This document shows, one piece after another, positions 8,801-33,565 of a DNA stretch of 33,565 nucleotides. The position numbers and the translations under genes are program-made. The DNA lies in assembly GCA_000934665.2 (NCBI GenBank), contig KZ538232.1:62001-95565 (forward strand). The letters run 5' to 3'. Within the stretch, counting starts at the first letter, position 1, and every line of letters starts with the position of its first letter. The stretch comes from Catajapyx aquilonaris (lineage: Eukaryota). The notes beneath the pieces are model-generated. The model was not told the origin of the DNA and ran no database searches. It saw only the letters and a program-made list of their open reading frames with translations.

Positions 8801-11800
8801 TGGATAGATTAGTGGTGGAAGTGGATGAGTTTGCCCCTTTGACGTCACTAGATTAGGAAGGGCCACAGGTCAGTCTGTTGCCCGATAGTGTTGGTTCCCG
8901 CTGGCTCCTTCATAGCCGGGTTCAAAATATATGGGGCCGACTAATGACAAGAGTGTCCCGCCGTATAGGTAGCATGTCAGCTGGCGACAGGCTGGCGCTT
9001 GAGTACCGGCGGCGGGACGATGCCAAAATTGATGCTTTAGTTTCCAGCAGCGTACGTTGTTGACATTTTAACTGTTTTCCCATGTGTGTTTGGCAAACGC
9101 AGAGGTGGGGTGGCCCTGTGCTTGAGTCCTCAAGGAAGGAGAAATGGCGAGGCTTTGGTCCGGTTCGTGAGCCAGGAGCACCGGGACATGGCGCTCAAGA
9201 GGCACAAGCACCACCTTGGCACCCGGTACATCGAGGTCTACAAGGCAACCGGGGAAGACTTCATCAACGTGGCTGGAGGTCAGTTGATGTTTGCTTTTCA
9301 ATGGTATTTTTCGAATATTTCTGTTCGGAACGGTGACCTGGTTCTGGCTCCAGGAAAAGTGTCGCGCCCAAGTTTTGGTCGAAAGGTTGGGATTGTGGGC
9401 TTCAACTAGACCTTTTGACCCGAGGCGAGGGGTTGAAGATTAGGTTGGTAGAGGAGGAGAAGGAGGCGCAGGAGGGGGGNNNNNNNNNNNNNNNNNNNNN
9501 NNNNNNNNNNNNNNNNNNNNNNNNNNNNNNNNNNNNNNNNNNNNNNNNNNNNNNNNNNNNNGGAGGAAGGGGGGGGGGGTTCTTTTTTAATACAAATAAT
9601 TCGGGGTCAGTCACAGGTGTATGTTGGGCAAGGCGTGGAAAAGAGGCTGAGGTTCCTTGACCACGGGTTTTATCTCGGTCTCGCTCCGTCTGGTCGACTT
9701 TCGTGAGGTTACTGACTTTTCGATGGTAATGTTCGAGACGGGGCTCCGGTTTCATGATCTCAGAGATTTTCCGACGGCCATGTTGTCGTCTCCGATCCCG
9801 AACGTATCGGTTCTTACGTAAGATTGATCTGGAAACATCTTGCTCGTGTTTGTATTTTTAAAAATGGAGGCGGACCACCATGGAGTCAGTCAGGGTCAGG
9901 CCAACAATATTTGAATTTCACCCGGTGAATCACGGGGCAACCTCTCACGTGTCGTGTGATATTTATAAAAGGGGTCGTGACACTGAGGACCCGGTAGAGT
10001 TGCGTCACTTTTGAGTGTGCTTGATCCTTCTATTAGGATTTAAAATCCAGAGCATGTGAGCGATAGAAAGTGTGCCGTGTCATTGTCACGCAGTGTTTAT
10101 CACCGTGGGTTTTTGGGACGAAAAATTCCACCAGAAACTGAACGGCGGCCACGTCACGTGCCTGGAAAAGCCCGTCACTCTTGATATCAAGTTTCTGCAC
10201 AATTATTTCCATTATCTTAATTGCGCATTGTTCCGGCAGACTCCCACAATACATACCGGGCATTTTTTTTTTTTTTGCTCCTCGTGGCGCATTGTTTCTG
10301 GGCAGCTACTCAGATTTCTTTTTGCTATCGTCGTTCCAGCCATTACTTACAAAGCGGGTAATAACACACTGCGTGGCTAGTACAATATGGTATGGCAACG
10401 TCCACATTCGCTGCATGTGATAAAAAGCTATGTGTGCCCGTTTGACGGCAGTACCTGAGAAATCTACTGGAAATTGTTATCAGATGAGTGTATAGTATAT
10501 TCAAGAATGTCTCATCATGGTGTTGTTTCGAATCCTAGTTTTACTCTGCATTTCCCCGTCGCTGTATTTTATTTGTAAAATCTTATAGCTTACAATGATG
10601 CCTGTGTTCGAGTTGATGGAACTACATAATTATTATACAATTGGATTTGCATTCACGATGTTCTCACATCAGTAGCATTGGATGCACCAGGTTTAATCCA
10701 CCAGTTATGTTATCCCCTGAATCCCGAATCGATTCTTCAAAATGAGATACAGAATACTGCATTATTTGATCAGGTTCTTATCGTGGAGTGATAGAAACCA
10801 GTGAGTGTTGAGCAGAAGTTAGGGACGTGTCACTTGATGATTATTTGCTGGCAGTAGAGAGTAAACAACTCGACGAAGCAAGGAATAGTTATGGACGTTG
10901 CACGAGCATATGGAAAATGCATCGTCAGCCCCCCCCCCCCCCCCTCGGGCGTAATGAAGAACGTGGCGCGATATGCACGGTATACATCGTAAATCCATCG
11001 GACACCTTGAAACAATATGAAAAACATTATATTCTATGAATGTAGAGAATTAGTAAGGTAATAACTAATAAGTAATTATTATGTTCGTAATCTTGGGCTA
11101 TGCTGTTGGATGACCTGCACAAAGTACTGTATAAAACCAATTTACTCTATGCAGCCGGAATGAGCAGAGTAAAATATTTATCCGTACCCTAGTTAAGTCT
11201 AACTTATTTCACTGAAAGAGTTTTTCTCATTATCTCCTATCGCATTTTGTAAGACTGGTTTCCAGGGGGTTTGGCTTCTCAACAAAAGTTTGCTCAAGGG
11301 GGTAATCACTTGGCTGAAAAGTGTACACTGGAGTACCAAATTCAAGGAGTACCAACAAGGAGTAATAAAGAGTGAGGTACCTGAGGAGTACCAGGGAGTA
11401 CCACTCGCAGGTGTACACCGGAGTACCGAAGTGGTTACCCCCTTGAGTTTGCTACACCAAAGTACAATTAATTCATTATCATGATTTCTTGGATTTGTAT
11501 CGGCCTTTAGAATTACCCTTAAGGGGCTACATGTCGGCGTTTCTTGTCACCACAACAATGAGTTATATAGTATTTAGTTGCAGCATCATGTGGATAGGTT
11601 TTCAGGACAAATCCTTTCAGGAGGGGAAAAGTACTGTATCACTACCTGTATAGCCAGGTATCCATGTATGACATTGTCACAGCAGAGCAATTTTCCCAGG
11701 GTTGCATTTTTTCAATGTAAAAGTTCATGCGAAAGTTGGTGTTAATGCCAAGTCATGGCCATGTTTCCAAATTCAATTATTACAGTATTTCCTGCAAATA

Positions 11801-14800
11801 TAAGTTTACCGTATAAAACGACATTGATTAGGAGACGAATATAAAATTAGGTCATTGGTGATATCATCTTTCTCTTTGGAAATTGACATTTTAAATTCAA
11901 ATTCTAATGAATGTGCCTATACTGTATAGTCCAATGCCTGGTGGGGTCGAGGGGCTAAACTAATATTAGGTTAGAAGTGAAGCATAAGTGTGAACTCGGA
12001 CTTATTAATAAGACGTGAACCTTGCTCAAAGGGTCCGGGAAAGGTTGCATTTTATCGCAAAAAGGTAACTGAATTACAGGACCAAAGTGCCGTCCAGAAT
12101 GGCCACTGAATGATGTGAAAAGGGGTGGGGGGGGGGGGGCGCTGTGTAATTTGGGCGAGATGGTCTGCGTGACACTGTTGGAGGAATGTCATAAGACTAA
12201 AATGATTGCCTAAGAGGTATGATGCTAATATTTAACTAATAGAAGAATGTGTACACAATTGACACGTTCCCGACTCCCGCCTTCTGTCAGCGGATTTGAC
12301 CTACAACCCGATTGTGGTAAATTCAGATTCGTTGCAATTGAGGGCCCCAATGGAATCTTTTTATTCATTTATCAGCATCATTAAGAGCTTTTAATGACCC
12401 GTTCAAATTGCTATAAGAAGTAAAGTTACTTTCTGCACTTAGCAGTTCTGCTAAGTGCAGAAAATCCATTGTACATCAGGCAGTTCCTAGCCACCCTGTG
12501 GTGAATGGATTAAGACAATGTGGTGTGGGGAAGCTACTTTTAAAGAAGGATGGACAACATCTTTAGAATGTAGACGTCAGTGGGAAACACGACGCGAACG
12601 TAGATTTTTTTGTCACGTGCATATGGTAATTTCGATCAAATGGGAAAAATATCTGCCAAAGGCGCAAAAGAACTCAATGCCTCGTATATTATAGATGGGT
12701 CGGTGAACGAACGCAAGCGGGTGCCCAATTTTATTACAGGAATTACATTACAAACTGTATTCCGACCTGTCATAAAATTGGCCATCTGCTTGCGTTCGTT
12801 CACCGACCCATCTATAGTGTGGTTTGAGTCAGGTTTAATCAGAAGCTTGAATATGATAACTAGTATTGTGTGAATGCCCTGGTATTGAGTGAACGGGTAT
12901 ATCATTACAGTTGTTGGAGGAAATAAGAAGCCTAAGGCCATGAGGACAAGTATCATTATGACAAGTTTATCTTGGTTACTGAAACTTTCAAAGTACAGAG
13001 ACAGTGGCCATAGATTGCTACTCATAAGTCGGTAGAATGTAATTATGGGGAAATTTTAAAATGGAATATTATCAATATCCAGTTAAATCTAGGTTGGACT
13101 ATGACTTGTGTGGTATACTGTACAGTACTACTAGTGTTGTTGAAGTTGAATGAACTTAACTGATCCCTCCCATCTCTTTTCTCACCAACAATGTAGGTAG
13201 CAACAATGAAGCACAGGCATTCCTGTCCAAAGGTGCCAAGGTGATTGTCCGGATGAGGGGTCTACCCTATGACTGCACTGCCAAGCAAGTGGTAAGTGAC
13301 ACCAATGGGTATCACTGATTTATAAGTATCTTGATGTTGTCACTTGAGCTTTAACTCTGTAGCTCCTGTTGCAATGTTTCTGAATTTTTTTACTGCATCA
13401 CACTTGGGGAAGGGCAAGGTCCTGTGAACCCACCACTGGGTCCATTAACCCCATTAACCGATAATCAAATTGTTACTAGGCAATAAAATTCCAATGAAAA
13501 AATTAAATTTTTGATGATGCATCAGCTTGATCAGCTCTCTTCAGGAGTCCTGGAGCACACTATGAGAACCACTGAACTAAGAAACCAGGTTTTATTTGCT
13601 TTTGAATGACTTCATGTGTAAGTGAAGACTGAAGAGGTAACAGCAGGATTCACAAATTCAGTATCCAAAAGGCTTATGGACTTGGGGGGACTCTTTCGGA
13701 CACTTATTAATGTGCCATAAGTGATTTATTCTTGTTGAGTAATGTCGATACATATCAAACTTGGTGGAGACTCATATATGTTGCTTTTTAAAAATTTCAC
13801 AGGACATTTTCACTAGATACATCTTTCACTGGATGTTGATGATTGTGTAGTCATGATTATTCTTCGTATTGACAAGAGGTTCATTAGCAGCAATTACATT
13901 TTCCACCCATATATGTGATAATAATCCCAGCTACAAATGGTACTAACCCGTTCTGATTCAGATTTTTGAGAAGTACTATGTGATACTTACATTGGGCCAA
14001 TTAATGTGATCCTTGATTGATAATTTCTGTGATTTCAATTCAAGTATTGTAACTTGTTTATATTTTTATTGCAGCTTGAGTTCTTCGAGAATGGTGAGAC
14101 CTCAGTTGAGGTGATGGAGGGCGAGTCAGGGGTACTCTTTGTGAAGAGGCCTGACGGCCGTGCCACTGGTGATGCATTTGTCTTATTTGCTACTGAAGAG
14201 GAAGCAAAAGCAGCCTTAAGTAAGCACCGCAATGAGATTGGATCCCGGTACATTGAGCTGTTCCAGAGCACTACTGCAGAAGTGCAGCAGGTTCTCAATC
14301 GCTCCATGGAACCAAGGCCATCTGACATGATTCTTCTTGGTGGCCCTTCCAATGTTGGGGGGCCTGGAGGAGGAGGGCCTGGAGCTTCCCTGGCAGCCTC
14401 TGCAGCAGCAGCAGCAGCTGCTGTAGCTGCTGCTAACCACCACCATCACCACCATCAGGCAAGTTATATGAAAGTCTACTTGAGTAGTGTTACCGTTCCG
14501 AGCATGCGCAATGGGAGGAAGAACACCTCAGTCGCCTGGAGGCCAACGAGGACACATCTCTCCCGTGAAGACCCCTCTACCCTTCCACCTCCACCATCCA
14601 CGTCTTCACGGTGACCTCACAACAAGGGAGGGGAAGAGGAGGGGGGAATGGAAAGTCCTAAACAAACCGAACCAAACCGAACATTATTTTATTGCCCAAG
14701 GTCGGGATGTTGTTTATCAGTGGTGCCAACTCCATGGACGTTTATGAACAAAGTAACATAATTTCAGTATTTTAAACAAGGTCCTTACTGGCACCCCCGT

Positions 14801-17800
14801 GGGAAGAGTTGGTAAGCAGGATTAGCCGCGATATTCAACACTGAACCCAGGGATAGGCAGAGAACGTCAAAAGAAAGTGTCGGGAAGAATGAAACCAGTT
14901 TTTGATCATATAATTTTCTAATACAAACATTGATGTTTATAATAATAAGTTATGACCAGTTAGAAAAACGTGTTCGGAAAGTGTGCATATAATTTAGATA
15001 CATGTAAAGGGCGACACGGTGGCCGAGTGGTTAGCGCCGCAGCCTTCCACCTCTAAGGTCCCGAGTTTGATCCCCGGGTTGGACGGAGGATACTTATGTG
15101 GATAGAGTTTCGGTGGGTTCTGTCCGTGTTCGCGAGGGTTTTCTCGGGGTTCTCCCGTTTCCTCCCACTATCAAAATTCATCACATTACAGGCAAATGAT
15201 TAAAGTCGGGTATTCAAAAGATGATCCCCTAAGAGGCCCAAGGGGCCTATCACGGGGTATCCATTATTATTATTATTATTTAGATACATGTGTGCGAGTG
15301 CATGCGAGTAGAGGCAGTAGAGGTTGTGAATTTCTGTTCATACAATAATTGGTTGTTTTTTAAAAAATTCAAGCGGTATTGGTATGTTGAAGTGGGCAAA
15401 TGCATATTTCGCAGCCAATACAAAGGTGGGATTTCGGATGGGTCACAGGGTAGGGAATCACAGGTATGTGAATCCACGGAGGAACGGGTGGGGGTTATGC
15501 ATATGATTGGCAACATCACTGGCTATAAGTCCGAAGCAATTGAAAATATAGTGGGGACTGTAGGCCGCAGGTCTAGAAAAAAGCGAGCGAAGAGAGTGGT
15601 TTTCTACGCCTGCGTCATAGAAAAATGCGAGCTTAGTGAGGGTTTTTCTAGTTATGTTGAACTTGGTGTTTGTCAATGTACTCAGAAGTGATTGAAAGTG
15701 GAGGGATAATTATAAATTATCCATCTGGGGGCCTTTGAAGCCCGTTCGTAAGTATGGATCGGCGTAAGTCGGGTCGTTCATAAACTGGGGACTACCTGCA
15801 TCGAGTACATGTACTCGATGCAATGTGATAAATAATGGTGACTGGGAATTTGTTTTTTAGATGGCTTAATCCAGTCACATATGATTGCACATTTAGTACC
15901 TCCAATGAGCAAGGTCCAAAACACTGCATTTACCATGTTCTGTTAATAATAGGTTAATTTGCACTAAACAACATGCATGGAACATTGGAATTTATGTAGC
16001 CTACTGGTACTCCTAGACCATTATCATTATTCATAATAATCATCAATACTGCAACTAATTTGTTGTCCTTATTGGACTTTGAACTAGAATAAATCCCTGC
16101 TCATAAACATTATCCCTAGAAAGATTCTCACCACAATTCTGACTGGACCCACAATGCCCACATGGCTGGATGAAAATGGGTTTTCTTATTGACAATTTAT
16201 ACTCTTCATCACACTAAATTGTTGGTGTACTTAAACAGTATTATTAAGTGCCATATTTGCTGCAGGCGGTAGTGGCAGCCCAGGCTGCAGCTGCAGCTCA
16301 CCAGGCCGGCCTTCTTCCACAAGTTCCCCTCCCTCCTGGGGCAGTCCCTCATCATCATCAGGTCCCACTGCTGCCTCAGCAGATAATCACCAGTGGATCG
16401 AGGAAGGAGTGCATCCGACTTCGTGGGCTTCCATATGAGGCGCAAGTTGAGCACATACTTGAATTCCTTGAAGGACATGCTGCCAACATTGTCTTCCAGG
16501 GTGTCCACATGGTCTACAATGCACAGGTTAGTTTTTGCGTAGTTCAAATAATTTATGAGAGGGTCGCTGACATTTTAGCCATAATAATATAGTACAAACT
16601 TAGAAGTAACAAGTGTTTTGGCACAATTAATCCATTCAATTGATGGCTGAGTTGACACATCAGTTATGGTCTTCATTGTCTTGCAACTTCTACTGAGGTG
16701 ATGCTGCGTTCACTGGGATTATTTCTGCTCGTGTCTTGCTTTACTAGAAATCATTGTAGGAGGCTAATGTGGAACACCTAGTATACTAATGTATGTGTAG
16801 AGTGGGATCAACCGCTCCCAAGACATCCATTTTGTCCAGTGACAATGGTAGATGATGGGGTCTTTTACACAAACTGCCAGATCCACCATTATTTGGTTGC
16901 TGTGCACTTGCTATGCACAATTTTGTTGCACATCTAGAGACTCAACTAACACTTGGATTGCATGTCAGTGTGGATGAATTCTGTTAGTACTGTGAGTACT
17001 CTTGTGTGGTGCAATGTCAACTGGATGAATAATCCATCCATGTTACTAACTACAGTACTACCATCAGATGCAAGAAGACCGTAACTCAAAAACTAGTAAG
17101 GGTGAAAGTGGCATGCATGGCCTGCACTAATCCTCCCTCACTCAGAGGGGATTAGTACAGGGCATGCATGCGACTTTCACTCTTACAAGGTTTTGAGTTG
17201 CGGTCTTCTTGCATCTGATGGAAGAGTAGAACCCCGATTAACCGTCACCTATGGGATCGGGGCATGGTAAGATAACAGACAAGGTCGGATAATTTGAGGA
17301 GCAAAGGAAACTTGAATGAAACAAAAAACCACAACATAAAATCCAAGCTACAATCAGTACAATGTTACAGTTTTCTAAGAAATAGTGAAGTATTTATCTT
17401 TTACATACACACTGCTATTTAAAATTTAAAGGCAATACAAAACAAATGCTTAGTAGGCCTGCATACAGTATTTGACGAGAAAACAAATTGCTGGAGCGGG
17501 ATGGTCGGATAAACCGAGGAGTCAGATAATCCGAGGTCAGATAATTGAGGTTCTACTGTAATCCTCATTATTGCCACTCCTACAAACTGGTGATTGTATT
17601 TTACTACAGGGCCAGCCTTCAGGTGAGGCCTTCATCCAAATGGACAGTGAACAATCAGCCCAGCAGGCAGCTGCTCAAAAGCACCACCGCTACATGAACT
17701 TTGGAAAGAAGCAGCGGTACATAGAGGTTTTCCAGTGCTCTGGAGATGACATGAACCTCGTACTAACCGGTGGAGTGGTTAGTCCTCAAGGGAAAGGAGC

Positions 17801-20800
17801 AGCGGCTTCGGCCGCTGCAGCTACTGCAGCTGCCCTGCTATCCCCACCTGGTATGTTGTGGCCGCCCCCTGCGACTGCATCCCCATCCCCACCTTCACCT
17901 CAAGCCAATCCCATGGCTGCAGCAATGGCCTTATCTCGCCAAGATGCGGCTTTCTGGCTGTTAGGTGGAGCCAAGCCTGCGGCCACTACTGCTAACACAC
18001 TTCCACCAGAAGTGGCCTCACTAGTGGCTGCAGCTAAGATGGCCAAATCTAATCAAATGGTGGCTACTTTTCCACAAATGCAGCAACAGTCTCCACAGCC
18101 ATTTTTCTTTTTGCCACGATTGCCTTTGCAAACAACCAATCCATTTCTAGCTGCTCAGACTCAGCAACCGCAGGTGGCAGCGGCTACTGGTAAAAGGTCA
18201 TGGGATCAAGCTTTCCCTCATGCAAACCAGTCAGCAGCTGAGCAGGTTGCTGCTGCTGCTATTAAGAGGCAGTGGCAGCCTGCATATTCAGCTGCAGCTG
18301 CAGCTGCTGCTTACCACTCTCTATACCCAGCAATTTGAGAACTCAAGGCCTTTAGCTACTTCCATGCTAGGTCGTATACATCACAGCAAAAGTACAAAGA
18401 TGCAGTTTCTTGCAGTGGGTGAGATTAAGATTTTTAAGGAGCTGGTCTTGTTGCTTATTATATGTAGAATTGTTTCCCCCTCACACGTGATAATTTGCAA
18501 TCGTTTCAAAATCTTGCACGTAATCCAAGATAGGAGTGCTTTTTGCACTGCTCATTAGATGAGGCAGCATAAAATTAAGAGAAATTCACCTGTACAAGTG
18601 TCTTGTTTCCCCCCACCCCCCTCCCACATAGCATACATGCAACCTGTTGTTGAATGCTGTGCAAAAATCATGTAGTAAATCCATGGACAGACATTATTTT
18701 TGCATGAAGAAATTTTTAAATGATATTGGGCGGATGTTTTGCAAATCAAGATCAAATAAATTGGTGCACAAATCATGTCTCTTGTAGGATACGCCTGATG
18801 TGCCTTTTTTCACTTCTGCACAAAGCATATGGAAAGAAATATTTTGAATACATCTAAAGTCCAATGCAAAGTATTTTGCAAGAGAAGACACGTTGGACAT
18901 CAGGTCATGTAATTCTTGCATTAATCACAATAATATTAATCAGACATGATTATTTAGTTAGATTTTTGAAGTACCTATGCAATTAATTATCCATTCCACT
19001 TTTTCTGCCCCACTGAAGAGTAGTCTGGCAGTGAATTGAACAATCAAAAATGAAACAAACGAAAAAAATACTGGGAATGTATAGCTTGGTCCATCTTGCG
19101 CTCATTTCATTGGTGGACTGGGTATTCTTTTTTGCTCAGTTATTTTATTTTGGTTTTGGAGGAGATTCCAAAGTGCTCTTGAATTATTTGTGGGGCAATA
19201 ATGTCTTCCATAACAAGTTTGCCTTAAATATTCTATATAGTATATTGTAGTTATGTGCACTGTTTTCTCCACTGAAGAATTTTTGGAAGCTTTTTTTGTA
19301 ACTTGGCTCATTGTGTTTTGAGGAAGGTAAAGAGGAAGTGTGCAATGTCTTTTTTTGGGCATTTTTGGACTCTGGCTATTAAGGGGTGCTAACCCAAAAA
19401 AAAAGAATTGAAGTGGTGGGCAAATCAAGAAAAATGGACAAAATGTGGTTTATTTTTTTGTCACATCTTGTTCTTTATTTTTTGGGCTTCCTCTGGTTGG
19501 TGCTGGTAGTTTAGACAAGCCTTGTTCCCCCCCTCCATTATTTACGGTATCTGATTTGGTTGGGGGCAATGTTTTCCTGTTTATGTTTTTTTTTTCTCTA
19601 TTTTTTGGGAAGGGCCTGCCCAAAAGTGACCCAAAACTTTTTGAGGCGCAAATTAGTTATTGGGTTCCACTGCTTCTGTCCTGTTTGTATTTTTTTTTTC
19701 CACTGCAGCCTGCTTTTTAGGGGACATAATTTTGGTGATTTTTGAGGGAGATGTTGCACTTTAGAAGGCGAAGGCTGCACGATGGAACCAATTTTTTTAT
19801 TGGTATCCATAATATTATCCTGTTGTTTTCTAGGCTCCCTGACAGCTAAGCTTCGTGTGTGCGTTAAATTTTTTTCTGGGAAGTGGTTTTTTTTATACTT
19901 TTGGGTTGCTGCTACTGATGCCAGGTTTGGTCTTTGTCTGGGATTCCTACATATACATTTTTTTCTCTTGGGAACCCTCATTCCCACTTACATCCCTAAT
20001 ATTTGTCTAAATTTAGGTATCAGTGACAAAAACTCACACTTGCTCTGAAATAGAATTTCTGTTTACTGTACATAGAACTTTTCACACAAAACAAAACAAA
20101 AAAAATGCAATGGTGTGAAGAAGATAAAATATAATTATTATCTTGTTGCTTAATTGACCAATGTGAGTTTTTGTTATCCATAAGTGGATTTGGTGCCTGT
20201 TTACTTTTGCCAAAAATATTTGGGATAGGATGTGGACATGGGCCTTTCTTCATTCTGGGGTCAGTCATGTTATTAACACTGGACTAATTATTTTCTGTTT
20301 GGAGTTAGATTTGAGAGGGACACTTTTTCTTTTACCTTCAGACTTTTTAGGGGGTTGGGGGAGGATGGATAGATTAGATGTAAGTAATCTGAGGCAGAGA
20401 GATGATCACCATGTTGGGCTGAATTCCAGGTGGGTGCACTTATGATCTTTCTCCTAATATGGACTGGCAAAATTGATTGGAAAAAAAGTGAGTCAGATGC
20501 AGTGGAACCAAAAACAGCCAATTTTTAAAGTGCCTTCAGCAGTTATCAATATCCTTAGTTTCGTTGCATAGTACTTAATCATGGCAGCAGTATATCAGTC
20601 ATTGCCCCCACCTATCATAACACATTAAATTGTTGCATATTCCCTCCAATTATATTTTTCTCCACTTTGAATCTTTTGAGTGAATTTTTTGAGGTGCAAT
20701 AGTAAAGGGAAGGAGGTTGTGTTTGGAGTAAATTGAGGGGCTTATGTATGGCTTTTTTGTTTGTTTTTTATTATATTACTATATTGGCTGGATGACTCAC

Positions 20801-22920
20801 TTTGTATTGTGTGTTTATGCCGAAGGTAATAAATTTATTTAAAGTCTATCCCCCTGCAGGTTTAATGGTTGGGGTTTATTTTTTTTGGGAATCTCTAATG
20901 TGCTCCTTTTCCTCAGTATACTTTTCGGATTTGAGTGTCTGTTGGCGAGCAACTCAGGTAGGAATGACCAATCTCAGTTGCTTTTAAATAGTAAATGGGA
21001 TCTAATTTTATTTATGTGGTTGTCTGGCTTTTTTATCTCTTTTCCCTCTCCTAGTGCCGGATGGACGGACTCCATAATTATGGGAGGCACTGTTTGGCGG
21101 CCCAGATTTGGGGGTCACCTGCGCTACTTCCTGTCTGCTGTAATTTTGTGTGGCTAACAGTTCAGGGGAGACTGCATGGGCTTTGATATCTTCACCTAAA
21201 GGAAAATCTTGTGTTTATTTGCATGTGGTTCATATGTTGGCACGTTCAATCTGGTGACTTGCATAAGCTTAATGTTTTCTTAGATTCAAATATTACTATT
21301 TTGCACTGTTGCAGATGAGTATATATGCATGGGAATGTGAGCCAAACCAGATGTTCAGTTCTTATGTGTTTAAATACTAACCAGCAGAAGTGCTGCTTTA
21401 GATTTCTCAAGGTGCATGAATTACATGTACCTGGCTCGTGATAGGCTTGTGTATAATTTAATGAGAACCTCAGGGAAGTACAGCGTGTACTAAATCGTTT
21501 ACTGCAACAGAGAAAATAATATTTTTCTCATTTAACAGCATCACTTGAACCAGTGCAGGTTGGTGGTTTTTGCTCATGTTTCATCCCTCATCTCCAGCAT
21601 ACCTAGCACGAGCCATACATAGTTTTCTATTTGACAGAAGGTGGCACTCATTCCTGTGCCACCTCACTTTCATATGGAGCTTCAATATCAACCATGCTCC
21701 CTCAGAAACTTTAAAAGCTAAAGGTCCTTTTCATTCAATTTTGTAACTCGAGCCACATTGTGGCTCAACATCTGGATGGACACTGAATCACTGTTGTCAA
21801 CTGCTTGTCTCAGTGACACTCCCCAGGTCCATTAACAACAACTGTCTCTATTATTCCATTAGGTGGCATTCCATCTGCAGCTGGCTACCATCCTCATCAC
21901 CACCACCACCACCATGGGGCCTTCTCTGCATTTGGCCCTGGGGCACAGTTACTCTCCACTCTGACTCCCCTCACTCCACTGACCCCTCTGACCCCCTTAA
22001 CCCCCCACAATCCTGCCTCTGCCCCTCCTGCTCCTCCTGCCCCAACTGCTGCCCCAACCTACTATCCACCAGTCTTCTACTGGCCGTACCCCTCCCCACC
22101 ACTCAGTCCAACCTCCTACTATGCCAACAATCAGCCTGCCATGGTGAGTTACTGCTTCAGTTATTGTATAATTAGGCAAGTCCTGTGCTTGTTTCCAAAG
22201 GGAATAAAAGAAAGTGATATAGGCAACTACAGATGTAATGTAAGTGCAACACAGCTTACAGAAAGGATGTCTTCCAGGATCAGGGTTAGCATGGGTCATG
22301 ATAATCATTAGTAAGACTGACCCTATTAACATTACTGGAAAAGTAAAACTCAGTTTCACCTGATTAGCTCCCAAACTAAGAAATATGGATTTGAAAATAA
22401 TAATTTTGCAATATTCTTTTGAGAATAGCTTTATTTCAAACACGATGCCTTCTATTCAAATGTAGGAGGTACACAGCTTACATCTTCATGATAATATTGC
22501 CACTGTCTCTTGCCCATGGTAGTTGTGCTCCTGGTAACTTAAAGTGTGGTATGTCAGTTTGAAATACCACATACTGGTTGAATGGCATTTTTGTGATGGT
22601 ACCTAACAAATCCAGCTGCACTACATTACAAAATGACATGCTGAATTTTCTGTTAAAGTGCACCGTGATATGAATATGTATTCCTCATTGACATTACGAT
22701 TATTTTGTGATTTTGTTTCCAGGTAAGTCCAGACCCACTTGGCCTACAGCGAAGGGGTCCAAATGGGGATCTTGGTGGAGGAGGTGCCAACAATGGTGGG
22801 GGTGGGTTGCTGCTGTGTGCCCCAACCTCTGGGAGGCCTGGAGACACAATGGATGCCTTTGGGAGCCCAGAAAAGGCCATGAGGGCCAATGCTCACTGCC
22901 TTGAAATGTTCATAACTTGA
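2749..22920 (+). CDS. fus: fusilli / Epithelial splicing regulatory protein (ESRP1/2) ortholog, whole-gene span. Proximal isoform ends at 18338 (~795 aa); distal isoform ends at 22920 (~792-804 aa)
   Basis: Exons 2749-2880, 6651-6794, 7145-7355, 7491-7580, 7639-7693, 7756-7866, 9103-9278, 13197-13291, 14075-14458, 16266-16526 and 17610-18338 (or 17610-17850 + 21827/21863-22143 + 22723-22920) join in frame. ESRP signatures present: [86 protein letters not shown]. Confidence 0.96.
6651..6794 (+). CDS. fus: fus/ESRP exon 2
   Basis: [60 protein letters not shown]; 144 nt, phase 0-0. Confidence 0.92.
7145..7355 (+). CDS. fus: fus/ESRP exon 3
   Basis: [62 protein letters not shown]...ADMLN; ends at the U12-type donor GTATCCTTT. 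Confidence 0.92.
7356..7490 (+). other. U12-type (minor spliceosome) GT-AG intron, 135 nt
   Basis: 5' site GTATCCTTTT matches RTATCCTTT. Branch site TTCCCTTAAC (7465-7474) ends about 15 nt before AG (7489-7490). No polypyrimidine tract. Splicing restores the frame (T|AC = Tyr). Confidence 0.92.
7491..7580 (+). CDS. fus: fus/ESRP exon 4
   Basis: (Y)[29 protein letters not shown](G); donor G|GTAAGT; absent from the ORF track. Confidence 0.88.
7639..7693 (+). CDS. fus: fus/ESRP exon 5
   Basis: TTTCAG|(G)[17 protein letters not shown](C)|GTAAGT; resembles ESRP HRFSDPERVNYKFESGTC. Confidence 0.9.
7756..7866 (+). CDS. fus: fus/ESRP exon 6 (qRRM1, first part)
   Basis: TTCCAG|(C)[36 protein letters not shown](K)|GTGAGT. 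Confidence 0.95.
9103..9278 (+). CDS. fus: fus/ESRP exon 7 (qRRM1, second part)
   Basis: GCAG|(K)[58 protein letters not shown](G)|GTCAGT. Confidence 0.95.
9480..9561. other. Assembly gap (82 N) within a G-rich tract
   Basis: Run of n flanked by G runs; a further single n lies at 31641 within poly-G 31625-31666. Confidence 0.98.
11293..11447. mobile_element. 155-bp MITE with 19-bp TIRs and internal GGAGTACC repeats
   Basis: CTCAAGGGGGTAATCACTT ... AAGTGGTTACCCCCTTGAG (1 mismatch); TTTG on both flanks; about five GGAGTACC units inside. Confidence 0.7.
12430..12463. repeat. Perfect 16-bp inverted repeat with 2-nt loop
   Basis: TTTCTGCACTTAGCAG-TT-CTGCTAAGTGCAGAAA. Confidence 0.9.
12690..12816. 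mobile_element. 127-bp hairpin MITE
   Basis: ~51-bp arms TATAGATGGGTCGGTGAACGAACGCAAGC... / ...GCTTGCGTTCGTTCACCGACCCATCTATA; TA at both ends. Confidence 0.8.
13197..13291 (+). CDS. fus: fus/ESRP exon 8 (qRRM2 start)
   Basis: TGTAG|(G)[37 protein letters not shown]; absent from the ORF track. Confidence 0.95.
14075..14458 (+). CDS. fus: fus/ESRP exon 9 (qRRM2 plus Gly/Ala/His low-complexity linker)
   Basis: [14 protein letters not shown]...[20 protein letters not shown]...[20 protein letters not shown]...[26 protein letters not shown] (GC donor, phase 0). Confidence 0.9.
15006..15277 (+). mobile_element. tRNA-derived SINE with a V-domain-like core
   Basis: A box TGGCCGAGTGG (15020-15030); B box AGTTTGATCCC (15064-15074); core ...CCGTGTTCGCGAGGGTTTTCTCGGGGTTCTCCCGTTTCCTCCCAC; 3' stem-loop; (ATT)n tail; 14-bp TSD ATTTAGATACATGT (14992-15005, 15278-15291). 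Confidence 0.9.
15797..15822. repeat. Perfect 26-bp palindrome
   Basis: TGCATCGAGTACA|TGTACTCGATGCA. Confidence 0.9.
16266..16526 (+). CDS. fus: fus/ESRP exon 10 (qRRM3 start)
   Basis: CTGCAG|AVVAAQ...[58 protein letters not shown]. Confidence 0.93.
17053..17558. mobile_element. pogo/Tigger-like (Tc1/mariner) MITE whose left TIR is split by a nested element
   Basis: TA|CAGTA[insert]GAACCCCGATTAACCG ... GGTCAGATAATTGAGGTTCTACTG|TA; subterminal GGTCRGATAA repeats. Confidence 0.8.
17058..17224. mobile_element. Foldback (hairpin) MITE with 4-bp TSD
   Basis: ~78-bp imperfect arms CTACCATCAGATGCAAGAAGACCG... / ...CGGTCTTCTTGCATCTGATGGAAG; AGTA duplicated at 17054-17057 and 17225-17228. Confidence 0.85.
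17610..18338 (+). CDS. fus: fus/ESRP exon 11, long read-through form (qRRM3 end plus Ala/Pro/Gln tail with NLS); short form ends at the internal donor 17850
   Basis: [61 protein letters not shown]...LLSPP(G|GTATGT)...[10 protein letters not shown]...IKRQWQPAY...YPAI*. AATAAA at 18755-18760 and 20828-20833. Confidence 0.9.
21173..21418 (+). promoter_or_regulatory. Cluster of Rbfox (UGCAUG x4) and QKI/How (UACUAAC) RNA motifs upstream of fus exon 12
   Basis: TGCATG at 21173, 21220, 21326 and 21413; TACTAAC at 21375-21381. Confidence 0.6.
21827..22143 (+). CDS. fus: fus/ESRP alternative distal exon 12 (two in-frame acceptors: 21827 and 21863)
   Basis: Phase 1 matches donor 17850. Reads (G)[32 protein letters not shown]...[16 protein letters not shown]...[34 protein letters not shown]. 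YPSPPxSP is an ESRP C-terminal motif. The ORF track shows a different frame here. Confidence 0.85.
22201..22239 (+). CDS. fus: Candidate 39-nt frame-preserving cassette exon of fus
   Basis: [39 protein letters not shown]; phase 0-0; the 57-nt upstream intron is similar in size to the 58- and 62-nt introns of this gene. Confidence 0.4.
22723..22920 (+). CDS. fus: fus/ESRP distal terminal exon (degenerate qRRM4-like)
   Basis: [77 protein letters not shown]; open in phase 0. GRPGD..F.S.E.A.RA..LEMF echoes the qRRM C-half. AATAAA at 23967-23972. Confidence 0.7.
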   Translation, partial: VSPDPLGLQRRGPNGDLGGGGANNGGGGLLLCAPTSGRPGDTMDAFGSPEKAMRANAHCLEMFIT

Positions 22921-23653
22921 GAAGAGCCACATATCTTCTTAAGATTATAAACCCCCATTAATTGGATGGGTCTGAAATTCAGTCAGTCAAATGTTGTAAG
23001 GCGCATATTGGAAAATGTGCTATCTCATTGCAATTAATGAAACCATTATTATTTGACCCTCCACAGGATAAGTTAGTGCTAAGTTAATGCAGCAGACTGG
23101 GAATTAATTCCAGAGGCAATACTTTGAATGTCCAGTAGGGTGTTTGAAGAAATTATTTTAAGTTGAAATGATGGAGTACATTTTCCAAGTTGTTCTTCAC
23201 TGCGAGACTGATTCTAACCTATCCAACTGATTCCCCATTGTCTGCCCTTGAGGATATGAACTATACCAAAGCTTCCCCCCTCCCCTCCCTCCCCTTAACA
23301 TAACTTCAAAGAGACTAGCCGTGTAGAGATTTTTTTTTTTCTTTTTTGAGTGAATGTTTGTGTGTGCAAGTGTTAGTTATGCTCTCTTTTTCCTCATTTT
23401 GTTTTCCAGCCATGGGCAACCAGCCCAAGTTGACTGCCGATAGATCAAATGTCTCACCCTCCTTCCCCTCATCCCACCATGTTTTACTATGTTAATTATT
23501 ATAATTTTTTGGTTTTAACAGCCGTCCAATTCACACTGATCAAATGTTGAAAGTGACAGTTTACGATGACAGCAAAATGAATCGCTCCCAGTGTCAAACC
23601 CGTTTTTACTTGTTTTACTCCAACAACAATCCTATTACTATTAGTACTACATA

Positions 23654-23686
<33 letters not shown>
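23654..23686. repeat. (ATT)n microsatellite in the fus distal 3' region
   Basis: About 11 units. Confidence 0.9.
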
Positions 23687-24194
23687 GCATTGTTGATTAC
23701 TTGCATTGTTGCCAATTTAGCAGGTAAAATTCATTATTTCATATTAAATACTGTTAACGTGAAATATTGCAACAATAGCTTGTTTGTTACGTATTTTTTC
23801 CCTCTGCTTGCTTTTTACATCACATGACACTGATGCGAGCAATGTGTTGGACTGAAAAGGAATATTTTTCCTTGTTGATAGTTTGTACATGACATGTATG
23901 CTTCTGCGCATAGTTGCCTGTACAGCAAGTGCTGCAAGACTTCCTTGTGGTGCAGACTTAAATAATAATAAAAAGCATGAGCCACATCAATGCAAATTAT
24001 TTGCCAATGCAAGTGATGAAGTATATTATTCTGGTAATAACATAAATTAATACAGCTGGCAAGGCACATGAAATATGGATGGATTTTTTTGTCTATTTTC
24101 AGGTAATGCTAACAGATCATGACAACAAAAGGTAGCACCTCTTTGAACCATTTCAGGAATCGATTAATTAACTGATGCAATGCACTGATATTAC

Positions 24195-24477
24195 TCCTGG
24201 AACTGTGACGTGGGGTCTTTTAGGACCCCAAAGAAATTAAAATGCATTAACATGATAATTACCATGAACTTTCACCATTAAAAAAAGTATATAACAGGAA
24301 GTGCATGTTTACTTTGAATTAGCGATCATTTTAGGCATTGTCCAAAGAATGATGGCATATAGTCAATACATTGAAAAGTATGCTATAAAAATTAATAAAA
24401 ATTAAAATATGGATGGGGTCCTAAAAGACCCCCACATAACAGTTGCCATAACTTTCAGGCACGTCACGGTTCCAGGG
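24195..24477. mobile_element. Second piggyBac-like MITE family (283 bp)
   Basis: TTAC|TCCTGGAACTGTGACGTGGGGTCTTTTAGGACCCCA ... TGGGGTCCTAAAAGACCCCCAC...CACGTCACGGTTCCAGGG|TTAA; same asymmetric terminal/subterminal layout. Confidence 0.75.
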
Positions 24478-25589
24478 TTAACTATGACACCAAATGGTCT
24501 GAAAAATAGTGCAGAATTTAAATATATTTATGGTCTCATTCTTCATTGAGTCATTAAATTACTTGCACAGATCAGCATTTTGGTAAGCAGGAAATCCTGT
24601 GGTATATTCTCGGTCATATTACTGAATAATATAATATGCAATCATTACAGCCAATAATTGCACCTAACCACTAAGATTATGCTTAGTAATATGAAGTCAA
24701 ACATTCTTGTACTCACATGCAATCAATATCCTCCTGAAGATTATAAATGGAACAGTAGTGATTCTATGCACATGGAGTTATGTGCAAGTGCTTCTCGTAC
24801 TTTAGTGTGTTCATCATCTTCAGCTTGGAGTGGCACATTTCAACGAACCTATATATCTACATACCTGAAACTATTACTTTAGAATTTGTTGGCTAGCCAA
24901 CAATTCAATCCCACTGCTTTCATTCCAGAATATAAACACCTGTTGTCTGTTGACAAACAGCTACGTTTTCTCTCTCTATATTGTCCTGATAACAATTCCC
25001 CCTCAGATTAGGTGCATCTTGACCTTGAAAGCTTGAATTTCCAGTGACAACTGTGGTTAGGCTCGCTGCTTGCCAGTTGCCATCATGGAAGGTATGTTTC
25101 TTAAAATTATTATATAACTGCATCAATAAGCTAGCTGCCTCGCGTGAAGGGCCGTAACCCATAAGTGTTTCCCCGCGACATGTTTACGCCCTTGTTATCG
25201 ATGCCTAGCACTTATTGACATTACCCGCTTACCCAAACTATGCAGCTGAACGATGAACAAACAATAACTTTGGCAAAATAAGATCCATAATTATATCCTC
25301 CCCTTCAAATGCGAGACATTTTTTCCTGTTGGCAAAACCGTGCTAAATTTTATCCTCATATTGTGTATAAACCACATTAACATTGCGACCGTGCAGCAAT
25401 AAAATTATGCTCATAAACATTTTAACGTTTACTCTATTAAAAATACCAAAATCAATGTGCTTTAAACTGGCACATTGTGTACATGTCCACATCAACATGA
25501 ATGGCAAGTCTAGTGCGCTGCCTGTCCTTCTCCAAACAAATCAAATATGCGCATGAACATGATAAAACCGTGTGATGTCCTCCAGGGTT

Positions 25590-25670: not shown

Positions 25671-25777
25671 AGGGGTGTGAAGCCGGTCGGCGTCGGTCTC
25701 TCGCAGGAAGGAAGGAAGCTGAACGAAGTGGTACACCGCTCCACGTTGGAAGGAAAGGACTCTCTTTACACTTCAAG

Positions 25778-25897
25778 ATGGGGGACGGTCCGCTGGTGGA
25801 GGAGGCGCTCAAGAAGTGCGATGAGATCTGGTCCAGCGTCGGGTACCCGAAGGAGGCCCAGGAACAGATGGGGGCCAAGCTGAGGGACACACTCAGG
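25778..25897 (+). CDS. PRC1: PRC1/feo exon 1
   Basis: TCAAGATGG start context; MGDGPLVEEALKKCDEIWSSVGYPKEAQEQMGAKLRDTLR|GTGAGG. Confidence 0.85.
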
Positions 25898-28800
25898 GTG
25901 AGGAGAGGAGGAGGCCTCCAGGGGATTGGATTGGTGGGGTTAACCCTTAACTACGTAGGTGGAGCCTGAGAGGCACCAAGCACTATTTAAACGCATGTAA
26001 CTTTTTCATTGAATTTTATTTTCCCCTGTCCTTCCGTGACTTTGTCAGAAAAATCTTCCTAAGCATGAAAAGGAAAGAAAGAATTTTTTAGTCCCTATTC
26101 TTTGGTTTAAAAAAATTCGTAACGAGGGACAGGTCCCTCCTGGGGGGTGTTTTTGGTCCCTCTCCAGGAAGATGGAGAGGAGAGGTGGAAGAGGGCGGGG
26201 CTTCCGGAATATCCCCCACATCCCCCCTCTCCACTATTAAACCACCCTGATTAAACCCAAGAACGGGCGGAATGGTGTAGCTAGGGGAGAAGGCACTCAA
26301 AACAGTTGAGAAGAGAGCGAGGCGAGAGGACCCTGGGCCCAAGGAGGTTTAATTCCGCAACCAATTCCTTGGTGAGGTTTAATTCTTAAACCTTCACCCG
26401 CTTCCCGCCCTCCCTCCGCTCTAGCCCCCTCTCCAGAAAGTCTCTTCCACCTCCGAGGAGAGAAGACACTTTTGGGGATTTTGTGGAGAGCTCCGCCCAT
26501 TTCCCCCCTCTCCAACTTTCTGGAGAGGCACCAAAAACGCTCGGTGGACTCTATACTGGCTCTACCTATGCAGGTGAAGACTGAGCGGCTCAAGCATGCT
26601 GTAACCTTTTAATTAATAATTTTTTCCTGTCGGAATATGCTGACTCAGCATGTGATTTTTACGTGATCGGAAGCCTAATGATCTGAACTGCACTTTCTGT
26701 ATGTGAAAAGTCCAATGTAACAATTTAGTTGATAAGCAGAAATTTAAATATGTCGTTGGAGCCTCTCAGGCTCCACCTACGTAGTTAAAGGTGTTTCGCC
26801 CACCTACGTAGTTAAGGGTTAAATGAAGGCTTGGTCATCATTTTCGCCCTCTCTTGGTCTGTTCACTTGGGCACAGTAACACCCTGGATATTTATTGAAT
26901 GGACCACTATTACATTCCTTTTTGAAGGGACTAAATCAGAGGTTGTGTCTATCAATGTGGGTGTCGCCGATTTTATGAAAGTATCCAGTGGTGCTTGGGA
27001 CTGTAGCCAGCTCCACTTGGAGGAAGATCTATTTTTGCTACAGGCCATGTAATCAGTAACTGCATTTGATTTCAGCATATGGTTGTAGTACTTTCGTGGC
27101 CCAAGTAAAAAAGAAACATTGCCAGTAATAACTTGACACAATGAAACCTGTCCTTAACCCTTAACTACGTAGGTGGAGCCTGAGAGGCTCCAAGCACTAT
27201 TTAAACGCATGTAACGTTTTCATTGAATTCTATTTTCCCCTGTCCTTCCGTGACTTTGTCAGAAAAACCTTCCTAACCATGAAAAGGAAAGAAAATTTTT
27301 TTAAGTCCCTATTCTTTGGTTTAAAAAAATTCGTAACGAGGAACAGGTCCCTCCTGGAACCGCTCAGGCTCTATATCTCAGGTGAAGCCTGAGCGGCTCA
27401 AACACATGATGTAACCTTTTAATTAAAAATTTTTCCCTGTCGGAATGCTGACTCAGCATGTGATTTTTACGTTTTCGGAAGCCTAATGATCTGAACTGCA
27501 CTTTCTGTATGTGAAAAGTCCAATATAACAATTTAGTTGATAAGCAGAAATTGAAATTAGCCTCTCAGGCTCTACCTACGTAGATAAAGGTGTTTCGCCC
27601 ACCTACGTAGTTAAGGGTTAACAGACTCCGATTATGGCGGAAACTTGTCCATTGCGGATTTATTTCTGGGAACAGGCATAGGACATGCAATGTATTTTTT
27701 GACAGATAAAGCAGAAACTTTTTCCATTATGGAAATTTTGTTTATTCCCACGTGATTCTACTATACACAGGTTTCACAGTATTTACCAGTGAGAAACATG
27801 ACAGTCTGCGTGCAAATAAGAGTCAGTTTGGTACTGGAGCGACAGTGAAATTTGACTCGGATGCTGCATAGCTGATCCACATCAGTTGTCATTATTTGAA
27901 AAATGGTGCCTATGATTCAAATACAGTTCAAGTGTTTACAATAGTTATAGCCCGGCGCCGGTGGACTGGTGGTTAGCGCGCTCACCTCTGGTCCCAAAGT
28001 TGTGGGTTCGAACCCGGCCTAGGTCGGTGACTTTTCTCCGGGTGGTAGAAAAGTGAGAGTGCGCCTTCCTTTGGAGGGGAAGTGAAGCCGTCGGTCCCAT
28101 GTGCTTGTGACAATACATTGCACGAGTGCACGTTAAAGTCCCCAGAGGCCAAATTTCCAGGAGGAGGACCACCCCCTGGCGTCGGTGTTGAGCCTTGCAG
28201 CAGAAATAGGCTGACGTTGAGTCCCATTTATTTATTTATAATAGTTATGTTGCCTTCAGTTGTGAGCAACCTGGGCTTTTAGGGCCAATATTATTACTGC
28301 AGCAAGAATACCTCATTACACTGTTAACAGCTATTCAGATTTTTCCAAGTTGGCATTTTCCTCAAGTTTGGAGCCATTATGATGCAGTATGTAGAAGGAG
28401 GAGGGGGAGGTGTGGTGGCCGTGATGGTAACGTCTCGGCTTGCTGAGTGAAAGGCCCCAGGTTCGATTCCCGCCTGGGGAACTTTCCTTTCACCTGTGTC
28501 AGGAGGGTCTCTGACCTGCACCAAGGAGGTGTCTGGCAACCTAACCTCCTGGGGAACAGCACATGACCCATTAGCTATGACATGGCACCTTGCACCCATG
28601 TTCCCTCCCCAAAAATCCCTATCCTTTCCCATTGTCCTTGTTTCCTTGCACCGGTGAATGAAGTGGAAAATATATATATAGAAAAACTGATGGTGGTATG
28701 CCACCCCCCGAAGCAGGACGTAATGTACTGAGCAAGGGGTAGTGAAATAAAATAAATAAATAAAAATAAATAGTATGTAGAAGGAGGACCTTTCTTTCCA

Positions 28801-30377
28801 CAAATCCTGCAAATTTCATGAAATTCCTAGATAGTGAAATTTTCTTCATACCCATCTTAACCCACTTCTACATGTCAAATGTCGCAGGATAGTGCACTGA
28901 ATGATGGTGATAATGTAATCATCACCATCGTCATTAATATTAACCTTACTGTTTATGTGCAGATTCTCGTCGATGAATTTGTGGCAGACACTCGCCGAGA
29001 GAAGGAACAGATAGAAGAGAATATAGAGCGCATGGGCCAGGCCATTACAAGATTGGAACGTGAACTTGGGCTGGAGAACTTTGAGCCGCTTGGGTTAACC
29101 TTGCTGGAGCTGCAGGATGAATTGCAGCATTACCAGGGTGTACTGCATGAAAAGAGGAAGAAGCTGCAGGTATCACATTTTGTCCTGTTTTGGATAAGTG
29201 TTGTGAAGTTAGAGAATGGTGATCCTGTTAATTCGGTATAAATTCTTACGAATTCATTAATTTAGATTACCACAATTTACTGCAAAGAGAAAACTGGACA
29301 CAGGCAAAGTTGTAAACTATTATCAAGCTAGATAGCCATTAAAACCATAAAAAATGGCAACCTCAAGTTCAGGTTAGAAAAATTATTTTCAATGCCATAA
29401 GAGACAGTTTATGTATCATCTTGAAAGCAGATAAAAATGGTAGTGATGAAATTTTAAAAATGAGCATTTAATGACTGCAATAGCATGCCAGTACAGTACC
29501 CTGCATTAATGGCTATGCACAGACATCGCCACCTGGCGGGATTGAGCGGAACTAGGCGTTGGTGGGCTGTGTCCAAAATACTTTGATCTCAAGCACGGTC
29601 GTATAAGGAGAGGTCGGGAAACTCCCAGCCATCTTGCGTTCCGTTACTCATTCCCGCCGTGGCGCTGACTGGAGGTGGCCATGATGTGACCTGGATCGTG
29701 AACATCTCACATATTGCGGCCATCTTGGTATACGCTATTGGTAGTAATCGGGAGGGGGATCGCTGATAAACCTAGTAATCGGGAGGAGGGTTATGGCGAA
29801 TGGAGTTGTTATGGCGAATGAACGACACGCACAGCGAGATTCCATTGTTTTTACTAGCTCCGCTGCGGGAAGGAATAACGGATCGGCCTTTTCTATTGCG
29901 CTGGGATAGAAGTTTCCAGGGGCTGATCTCAAGACTGCTCACGAGACCGCTCTAGACGGCTCAAGATATCGCGGTGGATTAACAGGCATTCGCGTGGTCC
30001 ATGTAATAACTGGTTCACAACCTCAATACATTGATAGGAATCGCAATGGCCTTATAATTCATCCCACAGATATATCTGTGATCCGCTGTGATCCATCTTT
30101 GTAGCAAGAGTTTGAATGCACCGCAGTATCTTGGGCTGTCTAGATAGCACTGCACTGCATTCTAGATAGCACTGCACTGGCTGGTCAGCCCTTAACACCC
30201 CTTTAAAAGTATCTTGGGCTGTCCCAAGTATTTTGGACACAGCCCACGGATGCCTAATTCCACTCGTTCTCGGACAGGTGGTGATGCATGTGCATAGCCG
30301 TTAATGCAGGGCACTGTACAGAGGAGAGTTTGGAGTGCCTAAATATGCAAAAACATACATGGAATGGAAATTATTAC

Positions 30378-30444
<67 letters not shown>

Positions 30445-33198: not shown

Positions 33199-33565
33199 GG
33201 GTCCAAAGCATGGGGTTTTTAAAAGGGTTAGTACACTGCCCATTTGATGGCGTCTGGCATGGTGCTTTTTTATTTGCTCATAGTTGTAAAAGCTTGTTGG
33301 TCCTTTTCCGAAATGCCAGGTACTGCGAGCGAAGGAAGATTTTTTGGGAGGGGAAATGTGCAGGTGCAGATGCGAGGGGAATGGCGTTTTGTGGAGTCCC
33401 CTGCGTGTTAATCGAGCGGAGATCCACCCGAGGCTAAGCCAGAGACAACGAAATATGGATATTTAGTCTTAAGGTGGTCGGCAACCCCTTTGCAGCGCCG
33501 CTACCAGGCAACAGAGGGCGGGCACTTCCCTATGTATTTCTTATGGTACGGCTCTGGATACTTCC

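Follow-up and report, generated by a model that had tools for sequence, protein, structure and literature searches.

A probable composite exon and two alternative C-terminal tails in the ESRP/fusilli gene of Catajapyx aquilonaris

The ESRP/fusilli gene and its internal splice site

The stretch of DNA analysed here (the window) comprises 33,565 nucleotides of the Catajapyx aquilonaris assembly GCA_000934665.2 (contig KZ538232.1, positions 62,001 to 95,565 of the forward strand), and on its plus strand lies a gene of the ESRP/fusilli family. The point of interest is the exon that encodes the second half of the third RRM (RRM3), from which the gene can continue in two ways. Our preferred reading, to which a probability of about 0.8 is given, is that this exon is the seat of a composite-exon switch, in which a spliced form ending in a distal tail (tail B) alternates with a read-through form whose tail (tail A) bears a putative nuclear localisation signal (NLS). 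All positions given below are those of the window.

The identity of the gene was established by comparison with known proteins. A query made of the exon and tail A, restricted to the longer proteins, gave 441 matches at E<=1e-3, the best 120 of which were analysed, and every one of these 120 carried either an ESRP/fusilli name or the precomputed Pfam set. An organism label was available for 102 of the best 120, and all belonged to arthropod genera, as read from their names; no protein of C. aquilonaris itself was found among the protein collections searched. For the exon-joined core of the gene, the closest match was the fusilli protein of a mayfly (85% identity over 333 columns). In a tree of this core, made from the window and 29 of the best 120 matches (the other 91 were left out, and the rows were all arthropod), the window formed a separate branch of length 0.31 amid non-insect arthropods, and no well-supported clade included it. 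To judge from these comparisons, the lineage would be a poorly sampled one, arthropod-like at most. The plus strand of the window contains exactly three RNP2-type R-G-L-P-aromatic motifs (at 7799, 13256 and 16422), which correspond to the three RRMs of the gene. When single exon pieces were submitted to Pfam, only a sub-threshold RRM_1 was obtained (19 bits, the cut-off being 20.7), as expected because the RRM domains are split across exons, and the pieces corresponding to tails A and B had no Pfam match.

The exon in question follows an acceptor AG at 17608-17609 and starts at 17610 in phase 0 (GQPSGEAF...), its best matches being arthropod fusilli/ESRP proteins with E values down to 3e-42. 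Directly after ...LLSPP it contains an internal 5' splice site with the context CCACCTG/GTATGT (the slash marks the cut), in which G 17850 is followed by GT at 17851-17852, in phase 1. This site had been pointed out, at the same place, in a preliminary description made from the sequence alone, and it matches the U1 consensus at 7/9 positions, which makes it at least as strong as several of the gene's constitutive donors. When the donor is not used, GGT ATG TTG (17850-17858) is read as the codons G-M-L. The donor G/GTATGTTG is therefore translated as Gly-Met-Leu in the long form, a splice site doubling as conserved codons, and this dual role may explain why G-M-L is conserved. The two continuations foreseen in the preliminary description were both borne out. 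Reading through the donor adds 162 codons up to a TGA at 18336-18338 (about 160 had been announced), and joining 17610-17850 to 21863-22143 and 22723-22920 gives an open frame with one stop, situated at its end. The features of this region are collected in Table 1.

Table 1. Features of the branching region of the ESRP/fusilli gene (window positions).
Feature	Position	Strand	Evidence
Shared exon part: second half of RRM3, linker to ...LLSPP and first base of Gly	17610..17850	+	sequence, translation, joint 16526>17610
Internal 5' splice site GTATGT	17851..17856	+	sequence; GT..AG joint in run X1
Tail A, 162 codons counted from 17850, TGA at 18336-18338	17851..18338	+	translation, X1 contig, homology
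KRSWDQAF, counterpart of the fly fusilli NLS core in QSMKRSYENAFQQE	18192..18215	+	sequence; fly peptide from PMC5478600
KRQWQP, second conserved basic-aromatic motif	18264..18281	+	alignment of 13 tails (A1)
AATAAA, candidate proximal intronic poly(A) signal, read-through form	18755..18760	+	pattern scan
ATTAAA, candidate poly(A) signal, read-through form	20624..20629	+	pattern scan
AATAAA, second candidate poly(A) signal of this type, read-through form	20828..20833	+	pattern scan; X1 cover ends nearby
Interval between two in-frame acceptors	21827..21862	+	sequence
First distal exon (GIPSAAGY ... NQPAM)	21863..22143	+	X1 joints at both ends, arthropod B-type alignment
Terminal coding exon, CLEMFIT and TGA at 22918-22920	22723..22920	+	X1 joint, translation, alignment
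3' UTR of the distal form, at least to contig end	22921..23638	+	X1 contig 22722-23638
ATTAAA and AATAAA, candidate signals, distal form	23743 and 23967 (beyond contig end 23638)		pattern scan

Two tails and their arthropod counterparts

Several lines of comparison indicate that tail A is a real, conserved coding sequence. Stop-free runs of at least 162 codons begin at only 348 of 32,965 plus-strand positions (1.06%), true exons included. In a BLASTP search, residues 1-240 of the 242 of the query aligned with isoform X1 of a beetle fusilli at 41% identity (E 1e-32), the alignment ending at the C-terminus, and an Artemia protein aligned over 90% of the query and contained the motif in the form KRSWEAAF. 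The tail could be aligned up to its final residues with the fusilli tails of the beetle, Artemia, a cockroach and a termite. In a MAFFT alignment of the window with 11 of the 23 motif-bearing matches, six blocks were common: LLSPGML, FWLLG (LWFMN in the cockroach), FFFLPRLPL, KRSWxxAF, KRQWQP and a terminal YPxx (YPAI in the window); KRQWQP is identical in the cockroach and termite tails.

The meaning of the fourth of these blocks derives from work on Drosophila melanogaster. Yang and Carstens (2017, Sci Rep 7:3848, PMC5478600) report that the fusilli isoform D is nuclear and the isoform G cytoplasmic, owing to alternative C-termini. The D-specific C-terminus was required for nuclear localisation, and a 14-residue peptide within it, QSMKRSYENAFQQE, which includes KRSYENAF, was sufficient for import; the authors mention its conservation among 12 fly species and other insects. 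Exon 9 of the fly gene has a 93-nt retained intron. The preliminary description had cited the alternative C-termini of the fly gene correctly, and it had proposed that the C. aquilonaris gene uses a different NLS. The signal does differ from the vertebrate one (see below); KRSWDQAF, however, matches the core of the fly peptide. Because tail A carries this core, the gene repeats the fly arrangement and does not present a third solution.

The conservation of this region was followed in an alignment (A1) of the last 84 residues of the window tail with those of 12 other arthropod tails. The K, R, A and F of KRSWDQAF are invariant across the 13 tails, and K61 and R62 of the second motif are nearly invariant, together with two tyrosines. 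W is the residue usually met at the aromatic position in the tails of cockroach, termite, stick insect, mayfly and Artemia. A profile made from A1 matched 46 proteins at E<=10, of which 44 also passed E<=1e-3, and the 13 matches with an organism label came from insects, Artemia and a springtail. The search yielded 38 new proteins, 31 of which contained the motif pattern, and many of the 38 begin at a Met within the RRM3 half-exon and continue unbroken into an A-type tail, as would be expected if this exon were composite in the species concerned as well.

Tail B is encoded by two distal exons. The first ends at a donor ATG/GTGAGT after 22143, in phase 0, and the next acceptor lies at 22723 (cag/GTAAGT). 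Here, at 22720-22728, the acceptor immediately precedes a hexamer with donor-like consensus, which the X1 contig reads through. An alignment of the window with 13 of the 84 B-type matches revealed AFSxFGP..AQL and a PSPPxSP-type block as common features. The last exon (LGLQRRG...GRPGD...CLEMFIT) aligns with CIQLQRNGDGRPNGE...RYIELFMA, which in chelicerates and crustaceans forms the second half of a fourth RRM, and ends of the ...RYIELFMA type were aligned from chelicerate, crustacean and termite proteins. The exon 22723-22920 is a degenerate remnant of this half of the domain. The chelicerate and crustacean B tails keep the first half of that domain, whereas a scan of the plus strand for R-G-L-P-aromatic motifs did not find it in the window. 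No motif similar to KRSWDQAF was found in tail B.

How these tails are distributed in the family was examined by calling a tail type A when it contained KR[STG][WYF]..[AS]F and type B when it contained the PSPPxSP block. Among the best 120 of the 441 matches, 21 were of type A only, 84 of type B only, 2 of both and 13 of neither, and the two types diverge directly after S-P-G. In the 23 tails with the A motif, the residues after S[PT]G were ML in 14, TL in 5 and others in 2, the remaining 2 having no S-P-G match. Both types were found in the same species in Zootermopsis and in Artemia. The same two tails, with the same S-P-G branch, are present in the arthropod isoforms annotated at NCBI (X1 versus X2/X3 in beetles, termites, ants and moths).

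Some peculiarities of the exons deserve a mention. Runs of histidine are encoded in two of them, HHHHHH at 14440-14458 and HHHHHHH early in tail B (21888-21908); long Ala runs surround both, and the distal His run is missing in the aligned arthropod tails. The first of these runs stands before the donor of the intron at 14459-16265, which separates the RRM2 exon (14075-14458) from the exon of the first half of RRM3 (16266-16526) and is apparently of the GC-AG type, with the borders CATCAG/GCAAGT ... TGCTGCAG/GCG and phase 0 at each border. All the GT donors tried within 14392-14480 looked poorer than the GC donor. The joint of this intron is not listed in run X1, since reads at 14392-14460 were skipped as repeats.

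Two transcript forms and their possible origin

Evidence at the level of transcripts came from a single sequencing run of one study, X1, which contains 0.62 of the sampled words and whose contigs were compared with the window over 6000-25500. The search for runs containing this stretch gave none on record as RNA. Ten joints were found within the gene, all of them GT..AG and in good splice contexts after shifts of the cut. Before these shifts they read 6792>7143, 7355>7491, 7579>7638, 7692>7755, 7866>9103, 9276>13195, 13290>14074, 16522>17606, 17849>21862 and 22142>22722. The last three become 16526>17610 (cut +4), 17850>21863 (cut +1, with a short side of 27 letters) and 22143>22723 (cut +1, with a short side of 255 letters). 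Because these ten joints trace the exons of the gene, X1 can be taken as cDNA-like.

In this run the gene is represented in two forms that branch at 17850/17851. The spliced one is a contig of 1267 letters, made of 27 letters of the exon end followed by 21863-22143 and 22723-23638. The read-through one is a contig of 912 letters that runs unbroken over 17823-18734, across the donor. Both contigs start at 17823, as expected of two branches from one shared word. The preliminary description had claimed that the gene makes two forms and had suggested comparing the joint from 17850 with cover across 17851-18338; X1 contains both. It had also offered two acceptors, 21827 and 21863, which are indeed both in frame, but only the second is seen in use, and no joint to 21827 is listed for the X1 contigs, a weak absence in one run that leaves room for a minor site.

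All these observations could be integrated in a model in which the exon with the second half of RRM3 would act as a composite terminal exon, its donor at 17851 competing with intronic cleavage and polyadenylation. If the donor is used, the exon would be joined to 21863-22143 and 22723-22920 and the protein would end in tail B, devoid of the import motif, like the fly G form. If it is not used, cleavage and polyadenylation would presumably take place in the intron, at one of the candidate signals beginning at 18755, 20624 and 20828, and the read-through would give the 162-codon tail A with KRSWDQAF, like the fly D form. By homology with the fly, A would be nuclear and B mainly cytoplasmic, and the choice between splicing and polyadenylation would most likely set the nuclear to cytoplasmic ratio of ESRP. 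Either regulators or the poly(A) sites would probably tip the balance between A and B. X1 contigs cover 17851-20972 (in bins starting at 17718); the next bin is nearly empty, and cover stops within 20972-21623. A competition of this kind is familiar from the immunoglobulin mu gene, whose secreted and membrane forms arise from a composite terminal exon with intronic polyadenylation. There too the C-terminus is decided by a contest between one 5' splice site and a poly(A) site lying upstream; the gene family and the outcome are different, and in the window the poly(A) sites are candidates.

A number of points weigh against this model. Each of the two contigs includes only 27-28 letters upstream of the donor, below the bridging rule of 31, and both come from the single run X1, whose kind is not on record and which possibly derives from the same sample as the assembly. 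The contigs carry no information on strand, ends or amounts; the read-through contig could in principle be an unspliced precursor, and a further contig at 19056-20609 is not attributable to any strand or to this gene. At the protein level, tail A by itself (162 residues), used as a phmmer query on 1.84 billion representatives, gave 0 matches at E<=1e-3. The tail is low in complexity and this search was empty, and its homology therefore rests on the alignments made in context and on the profile. The motif of the window differs from the fly KRSYENAF at three positions (Y>W, E>D and N>Q, all conservative changes). Finally, the correspondence between the fly G form and type B was deduced from calliphorid fly isoforms.

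Three other explanations can be set against this model. The one to be taken most seriously, still an unlikely one, accepts both mRNAs as real and supposes that the two proteins have the same localisation, either because KRSWDQAF is not an import signal in this species or because B reaches the nucleus in a different way; what would then distinguish the tails is some other feature, for instance their partners, their stability or their 3' UTR programme. It fits with the fact that the two forms have entirely different 3' UTRs, that 3 of the 8 core positions are not those of the fly and that localisation was tested for fly proteins only, in HeLa cells (PMC5478600). It is opposed by the invariance of K, R, A and F in the 13 tails and by the prevalence of W in the cockroach, termite, stick insect, mayfly and Artemia tails. 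Moreover, a short motif that persists inside a tail otherwise quick to change and low in complexity suggests that a function has been kept, and tail B offers nothing similar.

Much less probable, in our opinion, is that the read-through contig represents an unspliced or intron-retaining precursor, its open frame being a leftover and B the only functional form. X1 is not on record as RNA, its contigs are uninformative on poly(A) ends, and the overlap of the read-through contig with the exon amounts to 28 letters only, all of which would suit a precursor. Yet the frame is open over 162 codons, a length reached from only 1.06% of start positions, and annotated arthropod fusilli tails match the tail one block after another as far as its stop. 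Other introns joined by contigs of the same run contain bins without cover: those joined by contig 1 have zero-cover bins at 7953-8603, 9906-11207 and 11859-12509. Moreover, the same arrangement gives a functional nuclear isoform in the fly (PMC5478600). The last explanation, which can hardly be credited, holds that the distal exons belong to another transcription unit and that the joint at 17850 is an assembly artefact of the 27-letter overlap. Apart from the shortness of that side, it can appeal to the somewhat repetitive, Ala/Pro-coding nature of the stretch. Against it, the joint is of the GT..AG type and its two sides are precisely the in-frame donor and acceptor, the joined frame contains no stop before its last codon, and the distal exons encode a PSPPxSP...ELFMA tail, which follows RRM3 in 84 of the best 120 fusilli/ESRP matches.

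Other observations made on the run and on the remainder of the locus are reported for completeness. The depth of X1 at two intronic stretches, 14463-15764 (~80) and 11208-11858 (~33), is far above that of the exons (~10), and loose ends are found within these stretches at 11355, 11446, 15195 and 15209; the probable explanation is repeats, or contigs from other transcripts. In contig 1, the exon that starts at 6649 is preceded by 80 letters that could not be placed anywhere in 6000-25500, and therefore at least one more 5' exon must lie upstream of 6000. An N run (an assembly gap) occupies ~9460-9545, within the intron that follows the exon 9103-9278. Microsatellites of the type (ATT)n / (TAT)n are present in the region of the distal 3' UTR (23650-23690) and within one intron of the next gene downstream (~30390-30460). 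The product of that gene, also on the plus strand (25700-33200), is a microtubule-bundling protein of the MAP65/ASE1 (PRC1-like) kind; the exon at 32299-33195 matches Pfam PF03999 with an E value of 4.4e-29 and has only one relative in the large protein collection. A single N within a run of G is found in the region of this gene, at ~31640.

Relation to the localisation switches of flies and vertebrates

In the literature searched, PMC5478600 alone treats localisation isoforms of fusilli/ESRP, and it alone contains the string of the fly NLS peptide. Several features are shared with the fly. The long tail has K-R-S-aromatic-x-x-A-F in both cases (KRSYENAF in the fly, KRSWDQAF in the window), a second K-R motif and an aromatic-rich ...YPxx end, and in dipteran fusilli sequences the branch point also follows S-P-G. 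The differences are the shorter tail A of the window (162 codons) and the presence of W, D and Q in place of Y, E and N. What lies in the window is most likely the known D/G switch of fly fusilli, found in another, poorly sampled lineage.

The vertebrate switch is of a comparable but different design. In mouse Esrp1 (PMC5478600), exon 12 ends in two 5' splice sites separated by 12 nt, and the choice between them adds or omits CKLP within GLSPPPCKLPCLSPP, the form with CKLP being nuclear and that without it cytoplasmic; the preliminary description had named these competing sites and their effect correctly. The 15-mer printed in the article is the basis of the comparison with vertebrates made here. 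On that basis, both genes decide between isoforms where the exon following RRM3 ends, at a 5' splice site placed directly after LSPP (GLSPPP in vertebrates, LLSPP in the window), and the nuclear versus cytoplasmic outcome, predicted for the gene in the window, would be alike. That the decision is taken near the same protein position as in vertebrates, as had been proposed, agrees with this, LSPP preceding the branch as it does in the 15-mer. In contrast, the vertebrate gene has two donors and shared downstream exons, whereas the gene in the window has one donor set against a read-through with a separate 3' end; GLSPPPCKLPCLSPP is absent from the window, neither continuation contains a peptide of the CKLP type, and a single donor follows LLSPP. 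Taken together, what the preliminary description had observed in the sequence is confirmed, and its interpretation is partly supported.

These similarities invite a deeper reading, which is put forward tentatively and is more doubtful than probable. The switch would date at least from the pancrustacean ancestor, perhaps from the arthropod one, and, given the shared LSPP boundary after RRM3, it might have been inherited from bilaterian ancestors, the import signal having been replaced.

The production of nuclear and cytoplasmic ESRP in the fly manner would not be specific to dipterans, nor to insects, the whole arrangement being kept in a distant, arthropod-like lineage. This supports the view of Yang and Carstens (PMC5478600) that the cytoplasmic form of ESRP has a conserved job. 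The finding also provides a rule for the annotation of arthropod genomes: after RRM3, S-P-G is followed either by ML or TL, leading into the NLS tail, or by a splice to the PSPPxSP tail. Furthermore, the LSPP boundary and the position of the donor allow a concrete comparison with the vertebrate CKLP switch, to see whether the two are one event in different forms.

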